A stretch of 64,000 bases of DNA from Escherichia coli (lineage in GTDB: Bacteria > Pseudomonadota > Gammaproteobacteria > Enterobacterales > Enterobacteriaceae). The stretch lies in the NCBI RefSeq assembly GCF_048403405.1, contig NZ_CP183129.1. One strand, given 5' to 3'. Under the pieces are notes generated by a model. It saw only the letters and a program-made list of their open reading frames with translations. It ran no database searches and was not told the DNA's origin. This document shows positions 46,170 through 55,812 of this stretch, one piece after another. Both the position numbers and the translations under genes were made by a program. Positions within the stretch are counted from its first letter, which is position 1, and each line of letters begins with the position of its first letter.

Positions 46170-48086
46170 TTATTTTTTGTCTTTGACTTCTTCAAATTCA
46201 GCGTCGACAACATCGTCATCTTTCGCGTTGTTTGCAGAAGCATCAGCACCGGCAGTCTGCTGCTGGGCATGTTGCTGCTGGGCGATTTCCATCAGTTTCT
46301 GGGAAACCTGTGCCAGTTCCTGCATTTTCGCTTCGATAGCGGCTTTGTCTTCACCTTTCAGAGCAGTTTCCAGTGCAGTCAGTGCAGACTCGATAGCAGT
46401 TTTGTCGTCAGCCGGCAGTTTGTCGCCTGCTTCTTCAACCTGCTTACGGGTGCTGTGCAGCAGATGGTCACCCTGGTTGCGAGTCTGTACCAGCTCTTCA
46501 AACTTACGGTCAGCTTCGGCGTTAGCTTCTGCGTCGCGTACCATTTTCTGGATTTCATCTTCGTTCAGACCAGAAGAAGCCTTGATGGTGATCTTCTGCT
46601 CTTTACCGCTGTTTTTATCTTTCGCGGAAACGTGCAGGATACCGTCAGCATCGATATCGAAGGTAACTTCGATCTGCGGCATACCGCGCGGTGCCGGGTT
46701 GATACCATCCAGGTTGAACTGACCCAGAGATTTGTTATCAGCCGCACGTTTACGTTCACCCTGCAGCACATGGATGGTTACCGCAGACTGGTTGTCTTCA
46801 GCGGTAGAGAACACCTGGCTGTGCTTGGTCGGGATAGTGGTGTTTTTCGCGATCAGCGTCGTCATCACACCGCCCATGGTTTCGATACCCAGTGACAGCG
46901 GGGTAACGTCCAGCAGCAGTACGTCTTTTACGTCACCAGTCAGAACACCACCCTGAACAGCAGCACCGATTGCTACAGCTTCGTCCGGGTTAACGTCTTT
47001 ACGCGGCTCTTTACCAAAGAACTCAGCAACTTTCTTCTGAACCATTGGCATACGAGTCTGACCACCAACGAGGATAACGTCGTCGATATCAGATACGGAC
47101 AGGCCAGCGTCCTGCAGTGCAACTTTCAGCGGCTCAATGGAACGGTTTACCAGATCTTCAACCAGGCTTTCCAGTTTCGCACGAGTCACTTTGATGTTCA
47201 TGTGTTTCGGACCGGTCGCGTCTGCAGTGATGTACGGCAGGTTAACGTCGGTCTGCTGAGCGGAAGACAGCTCGATTTTCGCTTTTTCTGCCGCTTCTTT
47301 CAGGCGCTGCATTGCCAGCGGATCGTTGCGCAGGTCAATGCCCTGATCTTTCTTGAATTCTTCAACCAGGTAGTTGATCAGACGGCTGTCGAAGTCTTCA
47401 CCACCCAGGTGGGTATCACCGTTGGTTGCCAGAACTTCGAAGGTTTTTTCGCCGTCAACTTCGTCGATTTCGATAATAGAAATATCGAAAGTACCACCAC
47501 CCAGGTCATAAACCGCGATAGTACGGTTGCCAGTACCTTTGTCCAGACCGTAAGCCAGCGCAGCTGCGGTCGGTTCGTTGATGATACGTTTTACTTCCAG
47601 ACCAGCGATACGGCCTGCGTCTTTGGTTGCCTGACGCTGAGCATCGTTAAAGTATGCCGGTACGGTGATAACAGCTTCAGTTACCGGTTCACCCAGGTAA
47701 TCTTCAGCGGTTTTCTTCATTTTTTTCAGCACTTCAGCAGAAATCTGCGGCGGTGCCATTTTCTGGCCTTTAACTTCGACCCATGCGTCGCCGTTATCAG
47801 CAGCAATAATTTTGAACGGCATGATGGAAACATCACGCTGTACTTCTTCGTCCTGGAAGCGGCGGCCAATCAGGCGTTTAATCGCAAACAGGGTGTTTTG
47901 CGGGTTCGTCACTGCCTGACGTTTAGCCGGCTGACCAACCAGAGTTTCACCATCCTGGGTATAGGCAATGATAGAAGGCGTGGTGCGATCGCCTTCGGCG
48001 TTCTCCAGTACACGAGGAGTGGTGCCATCCATAATCGCTACACAAGAGTTGGTAGTACCCAGGTCGATACCAATTATTTTACCCAT
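46170..48086 (-). CDS. dnaK: molecular chaperone DnaK (Hsp70)
   Basis: 638-aa [20 protein letters not shown]... Confidence 0.98.
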
Positions 48087-48119
48087 CTAAACGTCTCCAC
48101 TATATATTCGGTCATCATG

Positions 48120-48245
48120 TGGTTGTGAGTCTGTAATAGGGGCGAAACGTCTGGTTTCAACTGCCCAATTTCATTTTTTTGCAGACTCACTCACTGCGGT
48201 TGACTACTAAATGGGGTCGTAACCCACGTCATCAAGGGGGAGATG
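48120..48245 (-). promoter_or_regulatory. dnaK sigma-32 heat-shock promoters (P1/P2)
   Basis: on minus strand: CTCCCCCTTGATGA ... CCCCATTTA and CAGTTGAAA ... GCCCCTATT, matching sigma-32 -35/-10 consensus (CCCTTGAA / CCCCATnT). Confidence 0.7.
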
Positions 48246-48461
48246 CAAAAATTTTTTGTGCTTTTGCGCAGAAATTTCGCGATATGCCAGAACAAGACAC
48301 GAAACTGACAGCAATTTTATTCATATAGAGAATGAATGACAGCCAAGACATTCATAGAAAAATTGTAATAAAAAGAAAATATTACGTACCTGAATCTTCT
48401 CTTTATCAGCAGTAAACTAGTGGGTATTCATCCCCTACCTCTCCCCACTAAGAGAATCCTT

Positions 48462-48866
48462 ATGAAATCCGTTTTTACGCTTTCCGCCAGCCTGGCGATT
48501 AGCCTGCTGCTGTGCTGCACAGCGCAGGCAAACAACCATAAAATCCTCGGCGTCATTGCGATGCCGCGTAACGAAACCAACGATCTGGCGCTGAAACTTC
48601 CTGTTTGTCGCATTGTTAAACGCATTCAACTCACTGCCGACCATGGCGATTTACAGTTAAGTGGTGCATCGGTTTATTTAAAAGCCGCCCGTAGTGCCAG
48701 TCAGAGCCTGAATATTCCTTCAGAAATAAAAGAAGGGCAAACCACTGACTGGATCAACATTAACAGCGATAACGACAATAAACGCTGCGTCTCAAAAATC
48801 ACCTTTTCCGGCCATACGGTGAACTCATCGGATATGGCCACGCTGAAAATTATCGGCGACGACTAA
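48462..48866 (+). CDS. yaaI: DUF2541 secreted protein YaaI
   Basis: ORF track 48420..48866; trimmed to 134 aa starting [23 protein letters not shown] (signal peptide). Confidence 0.85.
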
Positions 48867-48891
48867 CGCCAGAATATAGAAGCCACAAAAA

Positions 48892-49605
48892 ATGAATGTT
48901 AATTACCTGAATGATTCAGATCTGGATTTTCTCCAGCATTGTAGTGAGGAACAATTGGCAAATTTCGCCCGGCTGCTCACTCATAATGAAAAAGGCAAAA
49001 CTCGCCTCTCCAGCGTACTGATGCGCAACGAACTGTTTAAATCGATGGAAGGACATCCCGAGCAACACCGCCGCAACTGGCAGCTGATTGCCGGAGAATT
49101 ACAACATTTTGGTGGCGATAGTATCGCCAACAAATTGCGCGGACACGGTAAATTGTATCGGGCCATTTTGCTCGATGTTTCAAAAAGATTGAAGCTGAAA
49201 GCCGACAAAGAGATGTCTACGTTTGAAATTGAGCAACAGTTACTGGAGCAATTTCTGCGTAATACCTGGAAGAAAATGGACGAGGAACATAAGCAGGAGT
49301 TTCTGCACGCGGTCGATGCCAGGGTGAATGAGCTGGAAGAGCTGCTGCCGCTGCTGATGAAAGACAAATTATTGGCAAAAGGCGTGTCGCATTTGCTTTC
49401 CAGCCAATTGACCCGCATTTTACGCACCCACGCAGCAATGAGCGTACTTGGGCATGGTTTGCTGCGCGGCGCGGGGCTGGGAGGCCCTGTAGGCGCGGCA
49501 CTAAATGGGGTTAAAGCGGTCAGCGGCAGCGCCTATCGCGTGACGATTCCAGCCGTACTGCAAATCGCCTGCCTGCGCCGGATGGTTAGTGCCACTCAGG
49601 TCTGA
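48892..49605 (+). CDS. yaaW: UPF0174 protein YaaW
   Basis: 237-aa ORF; synteny between yaaI and satP. Confidence 0.85.
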   Translation: MNVNYLNDSDLDFLQHCSEEQLANFARLLTHNEKGKTRLSSVLMRNELFKSMEGHPEQHRRNWQLIAGELQHFGGDSIANKLRGHGKLYRAILLDVSKRLKLKADKEMSTFEIEQQLLEQFLRNTWKKMDEEHKQEFLHAVDARVNELEELLPLLMKDKLLAKGVSHLLSSQLTRILRTHAAMSVLGHGLLRGAGLGGPVGAALNGVKAVSGSAYRVTIPAVLQIACLRRMVSATQV

Positions 49606-49753
49606 TACCGGAAACCGGGGAAAATTTTCATTTTCCCCTCAAAAGATCGTAGACACTGCCCCACTGGCTGATTATTATGCCGCGCCCTGAAAACACTACA
49701 GTTATTCAGGGAAATTATTTCACCATTCATTCGATGATGATTTTTGAGGAATT

Positions 49754-50320
49754 ATGGGCAACACTAAGTTGGCTAATCCGGCACCGCTGGGCCTGATGGG
49801 CTTCGGCATGACCACCATTCTGCTTAACCTGCACAACGTGGGTTATTTCGCTCTGGACGGTATTATTCTTGCCATGGGCATTTTCTACGGCGGCATCGCG
49901 CAAATTTTTGCTGGTCTGCTGGAGTACAAAAAAGGCAACACTTTCGGTTTAACCGCATTCACCTCTTACGGTTCTTTCTGGCTGACGCTGGTTGCGATTC
50001 TGCTGATGCCGAAACTGGGTCTGACCGATGCGCCAAATGCACAGTTCCTTGGTGTCTACCTGGGTCTGTGGGGCGTATTTACGCTGTTTATGTTCTTCGG
50101 CACGCTGAAAGGCGCACGCGTTCTGCAATTCGTTTTCTTTAGCCTGACCGTGCTGTTTGCCCTGCTGGCGATCGGTAACATTGTCGGTAATGCCGCGATC
50201 ATCCACTTTGCCGGCTGGATTGGTCTGATCTGCGGTGCCAGCGCAATCTATCTGGCGATGGGTGAAGTGCTGAACGAGCAGTTTGGTCGCACCGTTCTGC
50301 CGATTGGTGAATCGCACTAA
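49754..50320 (+). CDS. satP: succinate-acetate/proton symporter SatP (YaaH)
   Basis: 188-aa six-TM ORF MGNTKLANPAPLGLMGFGMTT... Confidence 0.94.
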   Translation: MGNTKLANPAPLGLMGFGMTTILLNLHNVGYFALDGIILAMGIFYGGIAQIFAGLLEYKKGNTFGLTAFTSYGSFWLTLVAILLMPKLGLTDAPNAQFLGVYLGLWGVFTLFMFFGTLKGARVLQFVFFSLTVLFALLAIGNIVGNAAIIHFAGWIGLICGASAIYLAMGEVLNEQFGRTVLPIGESH

Positions 50321-50330
50321 TTGTTTTGAG

Positions 50331-50357
50331 ATCCCCCCGCTCGGGGGGATTTTTTTA
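50331..50357 (+). terminator. satP rho-independent terminator
   Basis: ATCCCCCCGCTCGGGGGGAT perfect hairpin followed by TTTTTTT; abuts the mog stop on the opposite strand. Confidence 0.8.
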
Positions 50358-50942
50358 TTCGCTAACTTCGCGTCTTGCACTCTTCGGTCTGAATGCAGCA
50401 ACCACTTCCGGTGCCGTTTCAACGTATGGCCCTTCCAGCAACTGAATGCAGTACGGTACGCTGGCAAAAATACCGTGCACCACAACGTTACCCTCAGCGT
50501 CCTTTACACCTTCCAGCGTCTCTTTAATCGACTTCGGCTGACCGGGTAAGTTAAGGATCAGCGCCTGTTTGCGAATCACACCCACCTGACGCGAAAGGAT
50601 CGCAGTTGGTACAAAATGCAGGCTGATCTGGCGCATCTGTTCACCAAAGCCTGGCATCTCGCGGTCCGCTACTGCCAGCGTCGCATCGGGCGTTACGTCA
50701 CGACGCGCCGGGCCAGTTCCGCCCGTGGTGAGCACCAGATGGCAACTCATTTCATCCACCAGCTCACACAACGTTTGCTCGATGATCGCCTGCTCGTCGG
50801 GGATTAAGCGGGTTTCCAGTTCAAACGGCGTGGTTAGCGCCGATGTCAGCCATTCTTCCAACGCAGGGATGCCTTTATCCTGATAAACGCCGCTGGATGC
50901 GCGATCAGAGATGGAAACTAAGCCAATACGTAAAGTATTCAT
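50355..50942 (-). CDS. mog: molybdopterin adenylyltransferase Mog
   Basis: ORF track 50355..50945; 195 aa starting MNTLRIGLVSISDRA. Confidence 0.94.
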   Translation of the reverse strand: MNTLRIGLVSISDRASSGVYQDKGIPALEEWLTSALTTPFELETRLIPDEQAIIEQTLCELVDEMSCHLVLTTGGTGPARRDVTPDATLAVADREMPGFGEQMRQISLHFVPTAILSRQVGVIRKQALILNLPGQPKSIKETLEGVKDAEGNVVVHGIFASVPYCIQLLEGPYVETAPEVVAAFRPKSARREVSE

Positions 50943-51056
50943 CAAGATTTTTCCGTTTAAACAGTCTCGTTAAACAGAATGATACACTGCGAAGGGAGTG
51001 ACAGACAGGCTTCAGAAGAGGTAGCGTGACCGACTTCCCGGTCACGCTAAGAATGA

Positions 51057-52010
51057 TTACAGCAGATCGCCGATCATTTTTTCCAGTTTTTCCTGGTCAA
51101 CAGCAAACTTACGGATACCTTCCGCCAGTTTATCTACTGCCATTGGATCCTGGTTATGCTGCCACAGGAACTCGGACTCAGTGATACGCGCCGGACGCGC
51201 TTTCACTTCGCCGGTGTAAGACAGTTTACGTTCGATAGCCCCTTCGCTCTCAGCCAGCTCTTTCAGCAGCGCCGGTGCGATGGTCAGACGGTCGCAGCCT
51301 GCCAGTTCCAGAATTTCGCCGATGTTACGGAAGCTTGCGCCCATCACCACGGTTTCATAACCGTGCTCTTTGTAGTACTGGTAGATTTCAGATACAGAAA
51401 CCACGCCCGGATCTTCTGCCGGAGCGTACTCTTTCTTGTCGGTATTCGCTTTGTACCAGTCAAGAATACGGCCAACAAACGGCGAGATCAGGAACACGCC
51501 CGCTTCCGCACAAGCACGAGCCTGAGCGAAGGAGAACAGCAGGGTCAGGTTACAGTTAATACCTTCTTTTTCCAGCTGTTCTGCAGCACGGATACCCTGC
51601 CAGGTAGAAGCCAGTTTGATCAGAATACGATCGTTGCTAATACCTGCATCGTTGTAGAGTTTGATCAGGCGTTTTGCTTTCGCAATTGACGCTTCGGTGT
51701 CATAGGAAAGACGCGCATCAACTTCAGTTGAGATACGGCCCGGAACCAGTTTCAGGATTTCCAGACCAATATTTACTGCCAGTTTGTCGGTCGCGTCCAC
51801 GATCTGCTGCGCGCGATCGTTGCTCTGCTGTTTCGCCCAGGCGACAGCATCATCAATCAACTTACGGTATTCCGGAATCTGCGCTGCGTTAAGAATGAGA
51901 GAAGGGTTGGTTGTGGCATCCTGCGGTTGATACAGCTTCATTGCCGCGATGTCCCCAGTGTCGGCCACTACGGTGGTGTACTGACGAAGGGAGGTCAATT
52001 TGTCCGTCAT
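51057..52010 (-). CDS. talB: transaldolase B
   Basis: ORF track 51057..52073; trimmed to 317 aa starting [20 protein letters not shown]. Confidence 0.96.
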
Positions 52011-52288
52011 GATAGTATTTCTCTTTAAACAGCTTGTTAGGGGGATGTAACCGGTCTGCCCTGATGATATCACGACGCAACGTCAGCGCAACCGCCGACA
52101 AGACGGTTATCGCCAGGCGAGACTGTTTCAGATTTCTGACACTGCGTTGATATCGCCCGCCATTTTTATACAAAACCTCATGTATGCTACGCAGAAGTTA
52201 TCAAGTACCTCGTAGCGTATATACTTCTTAAACAATTGGTAACGTTTACACAGGAAAGTCATCGCGACCGGCAATAAGAGGGATATGC

Positions 52289-53719
52289 ATGCCAGATTTT
52301 TTCTCCTTTATTAACAGCGTCCTTTGGGGATCGGTAATGATTTACCTGCTCTTCGGCGCAGGTTGTTGGTTCACTTTTCGCACCGGATTTGTGCAGTTTC
52401 GCTACATCCGCCAGTTTGGCAAAAGTCTTAAAAATAGCATTCATCCACAGCCAGGCGGTTTAACCTCATTTCAATCATTGTGTACCAGTCTTGCGGCGCG
52501 CGTGGGTAGCGGCAACCTGGCTGGCGTTGCGCTGGCTATTACCGCCGGTGGACCAGGTGCCGTCTTCTGGATGTGGGTTGCCGCGTTTATCGGCATGGCG
52601 ACCTCGTTTGCCGAATGTTCCCTTGCACAACTTTATAAAGAACGTGACGTTAATGGGCAGTTTCGTGGCGGACCGGCATGGTATATGGCGCGCGGGCTGG
52701 GGATGCGCTGGATGGGCGTTCTGTTCGCCCTCTTTTTGCTCATCGCCTACGGCATAATTTTCAGCGGAGTTCAGGCGAACGCCGTTGCCCGAGCCCTGAG
52801 TTTTTCTTTTGATTTTCCCCCGCTGGTGACAGGCATTATTCTTGCTGTCTTTGCTCTGCTGGCAATCACTCGCGGTCTTCATGGCGTCGCCCGGCTCATG
52901 CAAGGGTTTGTCCCGTTGATGGCGATAATCTGGGTACTGACCAGCCTGGTAATTTGCGTAATGAATATCGGGCAACTTCCCCACGTCATTTGGTCTATTT
53001 TTGAGAGTGCTTTTGGCTGGCAGGAAGCGGCAGGCGGCGCGGCGGGATATACCTTAAGCCAGGCGATTACTAACGGTTTTCAGCGCAGTATGTTTTCCAA
53101 TGAGGCGGGAATGGGGTCGACGCCAAACGCGGCAGCGGCGGCTGCGTCCTGGCCTCCGCATCCCGCAGCGCAAGGAATTGTCCAGATGATTGGCATTTTT
53201 ATCGACACCCTGGTCATCTGTACGGCAAGCGCCATGCTGATATTACTGGCGGGTAACGGCACAACCTACATGCCGCTGGAAGGTATTCAGCTTATCCAGA
53301 AGGCGATGCGGGTGTTAATGGGTTCCTGGGGTGCGGAGTTTGTTACCCTCGTGGTTATTCTGTTTGCCTTCAGCTCCATCGTTGCCAACTACATTTATGC
53401 CGAAAACAATCTCTTCTTCTTACGCCTGAACAACCCTAAAGCGATCTGGTGTCTGCGAATCTGCACCTTCGCAACGGTCATCGGCGGCACCTTGCTAAGT
53501 CTTCCGCTGATGTGGCAACTGGCAGATATCATTATGGCCTGCATGGCTATTACCAATTTGACCGCCATATTACTGCTCTCGCCTGTGGTTCATACCATTG
53601 CCAGTGATTATCTACGCCAGCGTAAACTCGGCGTGCGCCCGGTGTTTGATCCGTTGCGTTATCCGGATATCGGTCGCCAGCTTTCTCCGGACGCGTGGGA
53701 TGATGTTTCGCAGGAGTAA
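52289..53719 (+). CDS. yaaJ: sodium:alanine symporter family transporter YaaJ
   Basis: 476-aa polytopic membrane ORF; synteny. Confidence 0.92.
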   Translation: MPDFFSFINSVLWGSVMIYLLFGAGCWFTFRTGFVQFRYIRQFGKSLKNSIHPQPGGLTSFQSLCTSLAARVGSGNLAGVALAITAGGPGAVFWMWVAAFIGMATSFAECSLAQLYKERDVNGQFRGGPAWYMARGLGMRWMGVLFALFLLIAYGIIFSGVQANAVARALSFSFDFPPLVTGIILAVFALLAITRGLHGVARLMQGFVPLMAIIWVLTSLVICVMNIGQLPHVIWSIFESAFGWQEAAGGAAGYTLSQAITNGFQRSMFSNEAGMGSTPNAAAAAASWPPHPAAQGIVQMIGIFIDTLVICTASAMLILLAGNGTTYMPLEGIQLIQKAMRVLMGSWGAEFVTLVVILFAFSSIVANYIYAENNLFFLRLNNPKAIWCLRICTFATVIGGTLLSLPLMWQLADIIMACMAITNLTAILLLSPVVHTIASDYLRQRKLGVRPVFDPLRYPDIGRQLSPDAWDDVSQE

Positions 53720-53788
53720 TCACAACTATCGATCAACTCATTCTCTTTTTTTGCTAAAGTCGGCATAAATTTCCTGCAAGGACTGGAT

Positions 53789-54565
53789 ATGCTGATTCTT
53801 ATTTCACCTGCGAAAACGCTCGATTACCAAAGCCCGTTGCCCACCACGCGCTATACGCTGCCGGAGCTGTTAGACAATTCCCAGCAGTTGATCCATGAAG
53901 CGCGGAAACTGACGCCTCCGCAGATTAGCACGCTGATGCGCATCAGCGACAAACTGGCGGGTATCAACGCCGCTCGCTTTCATGACTGGCAGCCAGATTT
54001 CACGCCGGAGAATGCCCGCCAGGCGATTCTGGCGTTTAAAGGTGATGTCTACACCGGCTTGCAGGCCGAAACCTTCAGCGAAGACGATTTCGATTTTGCC
54101 CAACAGCATTTGCGAATGCTTTCCGGCTTGTATGGCGTACTGCGCCCGCTCGATTTAATGCAGCCTTATCGTCTGGAAATGGGGATCCGTCTTGAGAATG
54201 CCCGAGGGAAAGATCTGTATCAATTCTGGGGAGATATCATCACCAACAAGCTGAACGAGGCGCTCGCAGCACAAGGCGATAATGTGGTGATTAATCTGGC
54301 GTCAGATGAGTATTTTAAATCGGTGAAGCCGAAGAAATTGAATGCCGAGATTATCAAGCCGGTGTTCCTCGATGAGAAGAACGGCAAATTTAAGATCATC
54401 AGCTTCTACGCTAAGAAAGCACGCGGTCTGATGAGTCGTTTCATTATTGAAAATCGGCTGACCAAACCAGAGCAACTGACTGGTTTTAATAGCGAAGGTT
54501 ACTTCTTTGATGAAGCTTCCTCCAGCAATGGCGAACTGGTGTTTAAACGCTACGAGCAGCGTTAA
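53789..54565 (+). CDS. yaaA: peroxide stress protein YaaA (DUF328)
   Basis: 258-aa [20 protein letters not shown]... Confidence 0.93.
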
Positions 54566-54604
54566 GTTTGTAGTCAATGCCGGATGGCAATCCGGCATTG
54601 ATAT

Positions 54605-54901
54605 TTAGCGATGATGTTTGTCAGGCCCCGGACGATGATCGCCACGATGATCATTGTGCTTGTTATGGCGCGGCGATGGCGGCGGTCCATATGGGTGCCA
54701 GCGATTGCCTCGCCATTCATAATGTTGTTTCCACCAGCCGTGGTCGCGCCAGTGACCGCCATCCCAGTAATAGCCACGATTATCACGATCGCCTATCTGT
54801 AATTTTACTGACGGGACTAGCGTAATTTCCGCAGCCTGCGCTGCCATGGGAGCGACCAGAACCAGGGAAAGTGCGAGTACGATAGATTGCATCTTTTTCA
54901 C
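54605..54901 (-). CDS. yaaX: DUF2502 secreted protein YaaX
   Basis: 98-aa ORF with signal peptide and His/Arg/Trp-rich C-terminus; position matches K-12 yaaX. Confidence 0.85.
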
Positions 54902-55062
54902 AGGTTACTCCTTTTATCATTGCCCGTTATGGGTCGATATCCGGAGATTACGCGATGAGAACGGCAGTTGTTATTCTCCGCAATCCTAATCTCTAAGTTA
55001 CCGCATTTATTGAGAATTTCTCCTTTTTCCCTGTCGTTTTTCTCCATATTTTCTTCATAATA

Positions 55063-55772
55063 AATATCCTCCGGCATAGCCGGAGGTTTTTCAAATGCGC
55101 CTATAAGGCTCTCTTACCAGCCGCGCCCTAACAGGCGCACACGATCTGACATTTGCATCCAACTTCGTTACTTACGGCCCGTAAACGGGCTGCCCGGATA
55201 GGGAATCGATAACTGCTCTCCCATTTTATCCTCTTCAAGCTGGTGCTTTATGTAATCCTGTATCTTCGCCGTGTTCTTACCCACCGTATCGACGTAGTAC
55301 CCTCTGCACCAGAACTCCCTGTTCCTGTATTTGAATTTCAAATCACCAAACTGCTCGTAAAGCATCAGACTGCTTTTCCCTTTCAGATATCCCATAAAGC
55401 CGGATACGCTCATTTTGGGCGGGATCTCCACAAGCATATGGATATGATCTGCACAGCATTCAGCTTCCAGAATCCGTACACTTTTCCACTCACACAGCTT
55501 TCTCAAAATACTGCCTATTGCTCTACGCTTCTCTCTGTAGAACACCTGTCTTCGGTATTTTGGCGCAAAAACTATGTGATATTTACAGTTCCATCGGGTG
55601 TGCGCTAAGCTCTTTTCGTTCCCCATTGGGACCCCCTTTTGATTTCTTGTTTGACACTTGCAGTTGCCAGACCGCAAGGTGTTTTAACAAATCAAAAGGG
55701 GTTTTAATAACTGGCTTAAAGCTGAAAGCTTTCCGGAACCCCCAGCCTAGCTGGGGGTTTTCTGTGCACAAC
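55063..55772 (-). mobile_element. IS200-family insertion sequence (IS200/IS605 family, single-ORF type)
   Basis: about 710 bp absent from K-12 at this site; boundaries found by aligning flanks to the recalled K-12 thrC-yaaX spacer (…TTCTTCATAA | IS | AAAAAAGCCGGGCTG…); encodes HUH Y1 transposase; sub-terminal perfect hairpin CCCCCAGCCTAGCTGGGGG. Confidence 0.85.
55168..55626 (-). CDS. tnpA: IS200 transposase TnpA (HUH single-strand Y1 transposase)
   Basis: ORF track 55168..55677; trimmed to 152 aa MGNEKSLAHTRWNCKYHIVFAPKYRRQVFY...HIHMLVEIPPK...FWCRGYYVDTVGKN, carrying the HuH motif and catalytic Tyr region of IS200 TnpA. Confidence 0.9.
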   Translation of the reverse strand: MGNEKSLAHTRWNCKYHIVFAPKYRRQVFYREKRRAIGSILRKLCEWKSVRILEAECCADHIHMLVEIPPKMSVSGFMGYLKGKSSLMLYEQFGDLKFKYRNREFWCRGYYVDTVGKNTAKIQDYIKHQLEEDKMGEQLSIPYPGSPFTGRK

Positions 55773-55774
55773 AA

Positions 55775-55812
55775 AAAAGCCGGGCTGCATAAAAGCAAAC
55801 CCGGCCTGATTG
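55775..55812 (-). terminator. thrC (thr operon) rho-independent terminator
   Basis: on minus strand GCCGGGTTTGCTTTTATGCAGCCCGGCTTTTTT just after thrC stop; the IS200 insertion begins immediately after the U-tract. Confidence 0.8.

Follow-up and report, generated by a model that had tools for sequence, protein, structure and literature searches.

An IS200C element in the terminator T-tract of the Escherichia coli thr operon

In the window analysed here, a stretch of 64,000 nucleotides of Escherichia coli DNA, the thr operon lies on the minus strand, and the end of that operon raises the question addressed in this report. The spacer between thrC (threonine synthase; 55829..57115, minus strand) and yaaX (encoding a DUF2502 protein; 54605..54901, minus strand), the upstream and downstream neighbours of the extra DNA, is 927 bp long in the window as against 213 bp in both K-12 MG1655 and the closest IS-free relative, strain Z1323HEC0462. 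What is the additional DNA, how did it come to lie at this position, and does it matter to the genes on either side? A reading of the sequence alone had already contrasted the 927-bp and 213-bp spacers, figures borne out by the window annotation and by K-12, and had proposed that the difference is an IS200-family element. We conclude, with a probability of about 0.93, that the extra 714 bp are one intact copy of IS200C, which belongs to the IS200 group of the IS200/IS605 family, inserted in the T-tract of the thr operon terminator. The IS200C copy is itself an ordinary, already known element.

We set the junctions of the insert by hand alignment against K-12 and then confirmed them with Z1323HEC0462, which is IS-free, shares the thrC and yaaX protein alleles of the window and is 99.5% identical to it over 24.9 kb. 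The empty site reads GCCCGGCTTTTTT/ATGAAG in both K-12 and Z1323HEC0462 (here and below the slash marks a junction). At the occupied site in the window GCCCGGCTTTTTT is followed by GTTGTGCACAG...GGATATTTATT and then by ATGAAG, the right terminus of the insert being also written GGAGGATATTTATT. The whole inserted DNA, relative to these two strains, occupies 55059..55772 (714 bp, minus strand) and is made up of a 711-bp core and three further bases, GTT. The sequence-only reading had put the extra DNA at roughly 710 bp and its limits at 55063-55772; its presence and the right limit of 55772 were exact, while the left limit fell four bases short of the actual start at 55059 and the size is 714 bp. 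The K-12 site, with its 213-bp spacer, is empty of this DNA. Since both junctions end in TT, the register of the insert is ambiguous by 2 nt, with 55061..55774 equally possible, and sequence alone does not fix the exact cleavage positions. When occupied and empty sites are compared, at thrC and likewise at ecnB, there is no target-site duplication, only this 2-nt TT ambiguity. The same comparison at thrC places the insertion directly after the T-tract of the terminator, as had been proposed, with the element oriented in the same direction as thrC and yaaX.

The 711-bp core (55059..55769, minus strand) runs from 5'-GTGCACAG to GGATATTTATT-3'. Over its full extent it has 0 differences in 711 positions from the copy between csgA and csgC in strain AR_0137, and 4-8 differences from other E. 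coli copies. The name IS200C rests on the RefSeq annotation of 100%-identical loci ('IS200/IS605-like element IS200C family transposase', WP_000526135.1), which serves as a proxy for the ISfinder reference. A feature that agrees at all 711 positions with IS200C copies annotated at other loci is not a product of chance. The sole long open reading frame on the thr strand within the 714 bp is tnpA (55168..55626, minus strand; 152 codons and a stop), and there is no accompanying tnpB, an arrangement that assigns the element to the IS200 group and sets it apart from the IS605 and IS1341 groups. The TnpA protein matches the Pfam family Y1_Tnp (4.4e-38, residues 11-129) and the NCBIfam family transpos_IS200 (147.7 bits, cut-off 55), and its relatives of solved structure (2ec2, 2f4f, 2a6m, 2vhg and 2xm3) include the IS608 and ISDra2 transposases. 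From motif positions the HUH motif is H61-I-H63 and the catalytic tyrosine is Y125. The PDB alignments pair the DHIH of TnpA with the DHIH of the solved chains and Y125 (qdYIkhQ) with the tyrosine in their kkYIeeQ, and a Y125F substitution is catalytically dead in the TnpA of Salmonella IS200 (PMC4513863). Both the IS200-family call, for which Pfam, NCBIfam and the annotation of identical copies agree, and the prediction of a 152-residue HUH/Y1 transposase therefore stand.

None of the 16 inverted-repeat pairs found in the element joins its two termini, which upholds the earlier claim that terminal inverted repeats are lacking. Each end carries a subterminal hairpin, and both hairpins are on the minus strand. 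The left-end hairpin (55737..55759), AACCCCCAGC-TAG-GCTGGGGGTT, has a fully (100%) complementary stem of 10 bp and an A run on its 5' side; those limits count an AA/TT extension of the core, CCCCCAGC-TAG-GCTGGGGG, and the hairpin folds with -18.7 kcal/mol. The right-end hairpin (55068..55086), CCTCCGGC-TAT-GCCGGAGG, folds with -15.9 kcal/mol (z -4.5), and the nine nucleotides directly 3' of it, ATATTTATT (55059..55067, minus strand), form the end of the element. The two hairpins follow the same design of an 8-bp stem and a 3-nt loop, with two compensated pair changes between them, and on the 5' side of each lies an A run (AAAA and AAAAA). The left-end hairpin is presumed to be the one bound by TnpA; its counterpart in IS200 (nts 12-34) is a bidirectional terminator (PMC4513863, Fig. 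1 legend) at which about 85% of incoming transcripts are terminated (PMC5435999). In the 5' untranslated region of tnpA a long stem-loop (55633..55701, minus strand; -32.1 kcal/mol, z -5.4) sequesters the Shine-Dalgarno sequence, and the Rfam family STnc490 (RF01405) matches 55636..55759 (minus strand) over the whole of its model (1-124 of 124) at 146.1 bits, against a gathering score of 56. In Salmonella, a region of this type encodes the antisense RNA art200 and the sense RNA 5'tnpA (PMC4513863, PMC5435999, PMC12594629). The Rfam match lies on the tnpA-sense strand, whereas the literature has STnc490/art200 as antisense. Matches to the Rfam families ceN100 and PsrR1 (E ~0.8), which fall on the thrC terminator and the right-end hairpin, were set aside as chance.

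How this copy relates to known elements can be stated quite precisely. From IS200C elsewhere in E. coli, whose sequence is the same, it differs only in its location, common to six clonemates, and in the GTT. The IS200 of Salmonella enterica, reportedly the subject of work by Lam and Roth in 1983 and by Beuzon and Casadesus, has the same left-end terminator hairpin, the same 5' stem-loop hiding the Shine-Dalgarno sequence, a single tnpA with Y125 and the STnc490/art200 region, the layouts being compared by description. It is quoted at 707 bp as against the 711 bp obtained here from empty sites, a difference that depends on where the T-rich ends are drawn. IS1541 of Yersinia pestis and Y. pseudotuberculosis is 85-87.5% identical to IS200C over the full length, with identical 22-nt left-end and right-end hairpins. 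It too lies behind a hairpin and T-tract and forms head-to-tail tandems, but its left terminus is GTGCCCAG rather than GTGCACAG and its copy number is much higher. A Yersinia IS1541 copy between pheL and pheA, at the attenuator (PMC3082878), fits this placement at terminators. The better-studied IS608 (Helicobacter pylori) and ISDra2 (Deinococcus radiodurans) have homologous Y1/HUH TnpA proteins (2a6m, 3.9e-19; 2xm3, 1.9e-16) and share with IS200C the subterminal hairpins, the lack of inverted repeats and of a target duplication, a short target abutting the left end and the lagging-strand orientation. They differ in carrying tnpB, and their targets, TTAC and TTGAT, have no reported need for an adjacent hairpin, whereas the target of IS200C, judged from its flanks, is apparently TTNTT beside a hairpin. 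The RAYT (TnpA-REP) proteins have a distantly related Y1 domain, with TnpA scoring 32 bits against NCBIfam REP_Tyr_transpos, far below the cut-off of 80. They are likewise tied to extragenic hairpins; IS200C differs from them in being multicopy and bounded by its own ends.

We surveyed the distribution of the element in complete E. coli genomes. A copy of IS200C covering at least 80% of the element is found in 2068 of 5426 (38%), at up to 35 places per genome, so that the description of IS200 as sporadic in E. coli was an understatement. The thrC-yaaX site itself is occupied in only eight of the 5426. Six of these (4621, TUM1226, OX030728, MS 69-1, GN02461 and TUM14771) have the junction of the window, and these six are exactly the genomes with a 100.0% match over the adjacent 24.9 kb; the next relative, at 99.5%, is empty. 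The insertion with this junction is confined to one clone, within which there are about 11-20 copies of IS200C, and is a good clone marker. The strain-marker value suggested by the sequence-only reading is supported with one caveat, namely that two other lineages are independently occupied at the site. In the genomes concerned, AR_0067 and LSN03-016011/A, the flanking SNPs are different and the insert is 711 bp without GTT. The AR_0067 copy is identical to the yghA and ecnB copies of other strains, and for the LSN03-016011/A copy the nearest match is the one at plaP in JJ1887. Three IS200C subtypes in three backgrounds are best read as three independent insertions, and point to the thrC terminator as a recurrent hot spot used by at least three IS200C subtypes.

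This recurrence at a terminator can be set beside the positions of related elements in general. One genome per species was scanned for the 22-nt left-end hairpin and the E. coli copies were added, giving 122 distinct, non-tandem left-end flanks. They come from E. coli, Yersinia, Vibrio, Brenneria, Dickeya, Edwardsiella, Mailhella, Desulfovibrio and Oxalobacter, together with metagenome-assembled genomes assigned to Bacillota, Peptococcaceae and Saccharibacteria, and are spread unevenly over these taxa, with about 50 drawn from a single genome, that of Yersinia pestis. A TTNTT pentanucleotide abuts the left end (T at position -5 in 115 of 120, at -4 in 101, at -2 in 118 and at -1 in 107, with any base at -3), and the right end of the element finishes with TTATT. 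A GC-footed hairpin followed by a T-rich tail is present in 94 of the 122 flanks (at least 77%), compared with 36 of the 875 TTNTT sites in the window (4%), and the distance from the foot of the hairpin to the junction is mostly 6-9 nt. The detector requires a GC base at the 3' foot of the hairpin and is conservative, missing the thrC terminator itself with its bulge and long loop; an earlier detector that took the longest stem gave 51 of 120, an undercount in which the stems took in the A and T runs of bidirectional terminators. Inspected by eye, most of the 28 flanks that it missed, including the one with the thrC terminator, do contain hairpins. Head-to-tail tandems, in which the right end of one copy abuts the left end of the next, occur at icd in E. 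coli and also in Y. pestis. A preprint has also described terminator-like sequences as over-represented on the upstream side of IS200/IS605 elements, within the element as well as immediately beyond its end (bioRxiv 10.1101/2025.07.22.666184). Judged from these flanking sequences, elements of this group lie behind terminators as a rule, and the position at thrC is neither chance nor a local accident.

Several other accounts of the insert have to be weighed against that of a recently arrived and largely harmless IS200C copy. The 714 bp could be ancestral at the thrC site and have been lost by precise excision from K-12 and most other E. coli, since IS200/IS605 elements do excise precisely (PMC5027513) and the site is occupied in three diverged backgrounds. 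We regard this as very improbable, given that only 8 of 5426 genomes are occupied, that the nearest relative (99.5% flank identity) is empty, and that the three lineages carry different subtypes, each with exact or almost exact matches at other loci, as fits recent independent insertions. A different possibility is that the insertion alters yaaX expression or thr read-through, for there are now 714 bp of new DNA between thrC and yaaX, and the base after the T6 tract, the only change adjoining the tract, is G in place of A. The thr operon terminator (55773..55807, minus strand; hairpin 55779..55805 and T6 55773..55778), whose T-tract was the insertion target, nevertheless folds with -21.9 kcal/mol (z -4.75) and has the hairpin and T6 of Z1323HEC0462, so the sequence-only reading was right that the hairpin is intact. 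In the direction from thrC to yaaX the element adds its left-end and right-end hairpins; the latter has a terminator-like score, and the former has the stability and, in IS200, the stopping power given above. That yaaX had been displaced from its former upstream sequence, as was also suggested, proves incorrect: the 157 bp directly upstream (54902..55058, minus strand) are identical to the empty allele of Z1323HEC0462, and only thrC and its terminator have moved away. A promoter scan of the minus strand found no consensus sigma-70 site for either yaaX or tnpA. With the terminator intact and these 157 bp unchanged, little effect on either gene would follow; from the sequence, the insertion is expected to be close to neutral for thrC and yaaX, and we think an altered expression of yaaX or of thr read-through improbable. 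It is slightly less improbable, though still doubtful, that the copy matters to its host mainly through small RNAs (5'tnpA and art200) that regulate host genes in trans. The full-length, 146-bit STnc490 match is in favour of this, as is the regulation of invF and of virulence regulons by 5'tnpA in Salmonella (PMC5435999, PMC12594629). However, nothing in it is specific to the thrC-site copy in a clone with about 11-20 copies, and the known Salmonella target invF lies in SPI-1; in E. coli such a role is hypothetical.

The association with terminators could also arise by selection only, if any T-rich pentanucleotide can receive IS200C but survival is restricted to copies that land in harmless spots just past a terminator. 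Intergenic DNA distal to a terminator is a safe place in which an insertion leaves both neighbours intact, and the preprint cited above interprets upstream terminators as a limit on transposase expression that helps the element to persist (bioRxiv 10.1101/2025.07.22.666184). Against this account stand the size of the contrast between the flanks and the window TTNTT sites, the narrow spacing from hairpin foot to junction, the use of the same bond at thrC by three subtypes, and the existence of many other harmless intergenic TTNTT sites. On balance we consider selection only unlikely, while selection against insertions elsewhere may contribute to the terminator enrichment alongside targeting.

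The junction in the window has one further feature, which is unexplained by a simple canonical insertion. Such an insertion would be expected to read ...GGCTTTTTT/GTGCACAG, but in the window the three bases GTT (55770..55772, minus strand) separate the thrC T-tract from the canonical left end; the other two thrC-site insertions are without them. An origin from a pre-existing host allele was rejected as unlikely, as no TTTTTTGTT allele was found at the empty site among 5424 genomes, where the best match was a T9 tract without the G; the empty-site T-tract varies in length only (T6 in K-12, T7 in strain 536, T9 in LS45). Also rejected was the idea that GTT is unique to the thrC copy, the sequence GTTGTGCACAG (GTT/GTGCACAG) being common at other loci. 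At ecnB the GTT is host sequence, for K-12 reads CCGTTTGTT/TTTT there and its natural target at this locus is TTTGTT/TTTT; GTT is consequently not a part of the element as such. Two origins fit the window junction: a canonical insertion followed by slippage that duplicated 3 nt (TTG to TTGTTG), or three nucleotides of a former donor flank (...TTTTTGTT/GTG...) carried over when the left end was cleaved at an upstream TTTTT.

A mechanism that would account for the placement of the element can be sketched from its better-known relatives. The TnpA of IS608 and of ISDra2 acts on single-stranded DNA, where it binds the subterminal hairpins; a short guide sequence directly 5' of each hairpin foot pairs with the cleavage site, and the element enters the lagging-strand template 3' of a defined stretch of four or five nucleotides (PMC6006769, PMC2806898, PMC5027513). 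By analogy, the TnpA of IS200C would have excised the top strand of a donor copy as a single-stranded circle and pasted it into a single-stranded lagging-strand template, 3' of a T-rich pentanucleotide. The plus strand of the window has a GC skew of -0.037 and the tnpA strand is the G-rich one, which makes the tnpA strand the lagging-strand template, the orientation reported for the IS200/IS605 family (PMC5027513). The A runs 5' of each hairpin foot could act as the guides, pairing with the T-rich cleavage sites TTNTT and TTATT; this guide and cleavage-site rule for IS200C is one that we infer from its sequence and from the related elements. A host terminator, with a hairpin and then 6-9 nt ending in TTNTT, may in this way mimic the right end of the element, with its hairpin and then the 9 nt of ATATTTATT ending in TTATT. 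Sharing of this layout would explain both the targeting of terminators and the head-to-tail tandem copies. The fullest version of the proposal, in which elements of the IS200 group actively choose terminators by right-end mimicry and A-run guides, the thrC terminator is a hot spot for them, the GTT is donor flank and IS200C is moving within the clone, is one we put forward tentatively, as a possibility rather than as the probable case.

For the window this matters little: the mobile element is one already known, it lies where it should do no harm, and its main use is as a clone-specific marker whose junction is present in 6 of 5426 complete genomes. Other lineages have acquired insertions at the site independently, and a marker assay should therefore score the junction sequence including the GTT, and not the mere presence of an element. 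Targeting of terminators, the hot spot at thrC and the GTT are side results of modest interest. IS200C is usually called dormant; if the tentative proposal is true, the spread of 11-20 copies across the six almost identical clonemates would signify that the element is currently mobile there. More generally, the locus offers a clean example, with matched empty sites, of how elements of the IS200 group lie directly behind intrinsic terminators, and so bears on how Y1 transposases choose their targets and on how a high copy number of such elements is tolerated.

In the thr operon terminator, the T-tract against which IS200C is inserted in the window (tract at 55773..55778) is polymorphic in length in E. 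coli (loci L001, L129, L130 and L135). It comprises six T residues in K-12 and in Z1323HEC0462, the closest IS-free relative, seven in strain 536 and nine in LS45. Many strains with a single copy of IS200C have that copy between plaP and sbcB (JJ1887, locus L131; ST131-type strains). The plaP-sbcB copy lies behind a terminator, with a flank that reads GGCTTTTTTGTT up to the boundary and GTGCACAG beyond it, and the last 19 bases of this flank are identical to the thrC junction in the window. On the basis of this sequence identity, copies of the plaP-sbcB type are a possible donor of the extra GTT at thrC, if these bases were carried along from a donor flank.

IS200-type elements also occur in head-to-tail tandem, as seen for IS200C downstream of icd in E. 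coli 15.TR.026_OXA (L005, 730..2320) and for IS1541 at five Y. pestis loci (L074, L075, L077, L091 and L121). At the tandem junction the right end of the first copy, GGAGGATATTT(A/T)TT, is followed immediately by the left end of the second, GTGC…, an arrangement consistent with the element's right end, with its hairpin and T-rich tail, being itself a target.

A scan of genome contigs (L009-L070) recovered the exact 22-nt left-end hairpin, ACCCCCAGCTAGGCTGGGGGTT, in Oxalobacter, Mailhella, Desulfovibrio and Vibrio, and in MAGs assigned to Bacillota, Peptococcaceae, Saccharibacteria and Elusimicrobiaceae. Most of these loci align to the window element only over short stretches, typically ~27-350 nt at ~77-100% identity, while in one Saccharibacteria MAG 557 nt can be aligned at 65% identity. 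This wide occurrence reflects either strong conservation of the hairpin or broad horizontal transfer of the elements; many of the matches are at contig ends, and those in MAGs may come from contamination. STnc490/art200 has been described as antisense to the tnpA 5'UTR (PMC4513863). The match to the Rfam STnc490 model, by contrast, is on the tnpA-sense strand, at 55636..55759 (-), and the model seems to represent the sense 5'UTR, left-end hairpin included.

Elsewhere in the window, a sok antitoxin RNA (44545..44697, +; Rfam RF01794, 119.5 bits) indicates a chromosomal hok/sok-type toxin-antitoxin locus. Gathering-level Rfam matches identify the sRNAs ES003 (26281..26333, -) and tpke11 (46082..46159, -), together with the threonine operon leader expected for the region (60538..60657, -). 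In the region between ileS/dnaK and yaaJ (30000..54900), the genes annotated by RefSeq on identical clonemate DNA include espX1, which belongs to a type III secretion effector family, and one for a fimbrial usher.

IS200C is an element usually labelled dormant. In the clonemate TUM1226 the thrC-site copy (L008) has two single-base deletions, at the equivalents of window positions 55616 and 55115; one falls in tnpA codon 4, where the ORF annotation differs, and the copy looks like a product of post-insertion decay. Despite 100.0% identity over the 24.9 kb adjoining the IS, the six clonemate chromosomes contain different numbers of matching places, among which partial copies may be counted: 11 in TUM14771, 12 in GN02461, 13 in OX030728, 15 in TUM1226, 18 in 4621 and 20 in MS 69-1. 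This variation suggests that the copy number of IS200C has changed inside a single clone.
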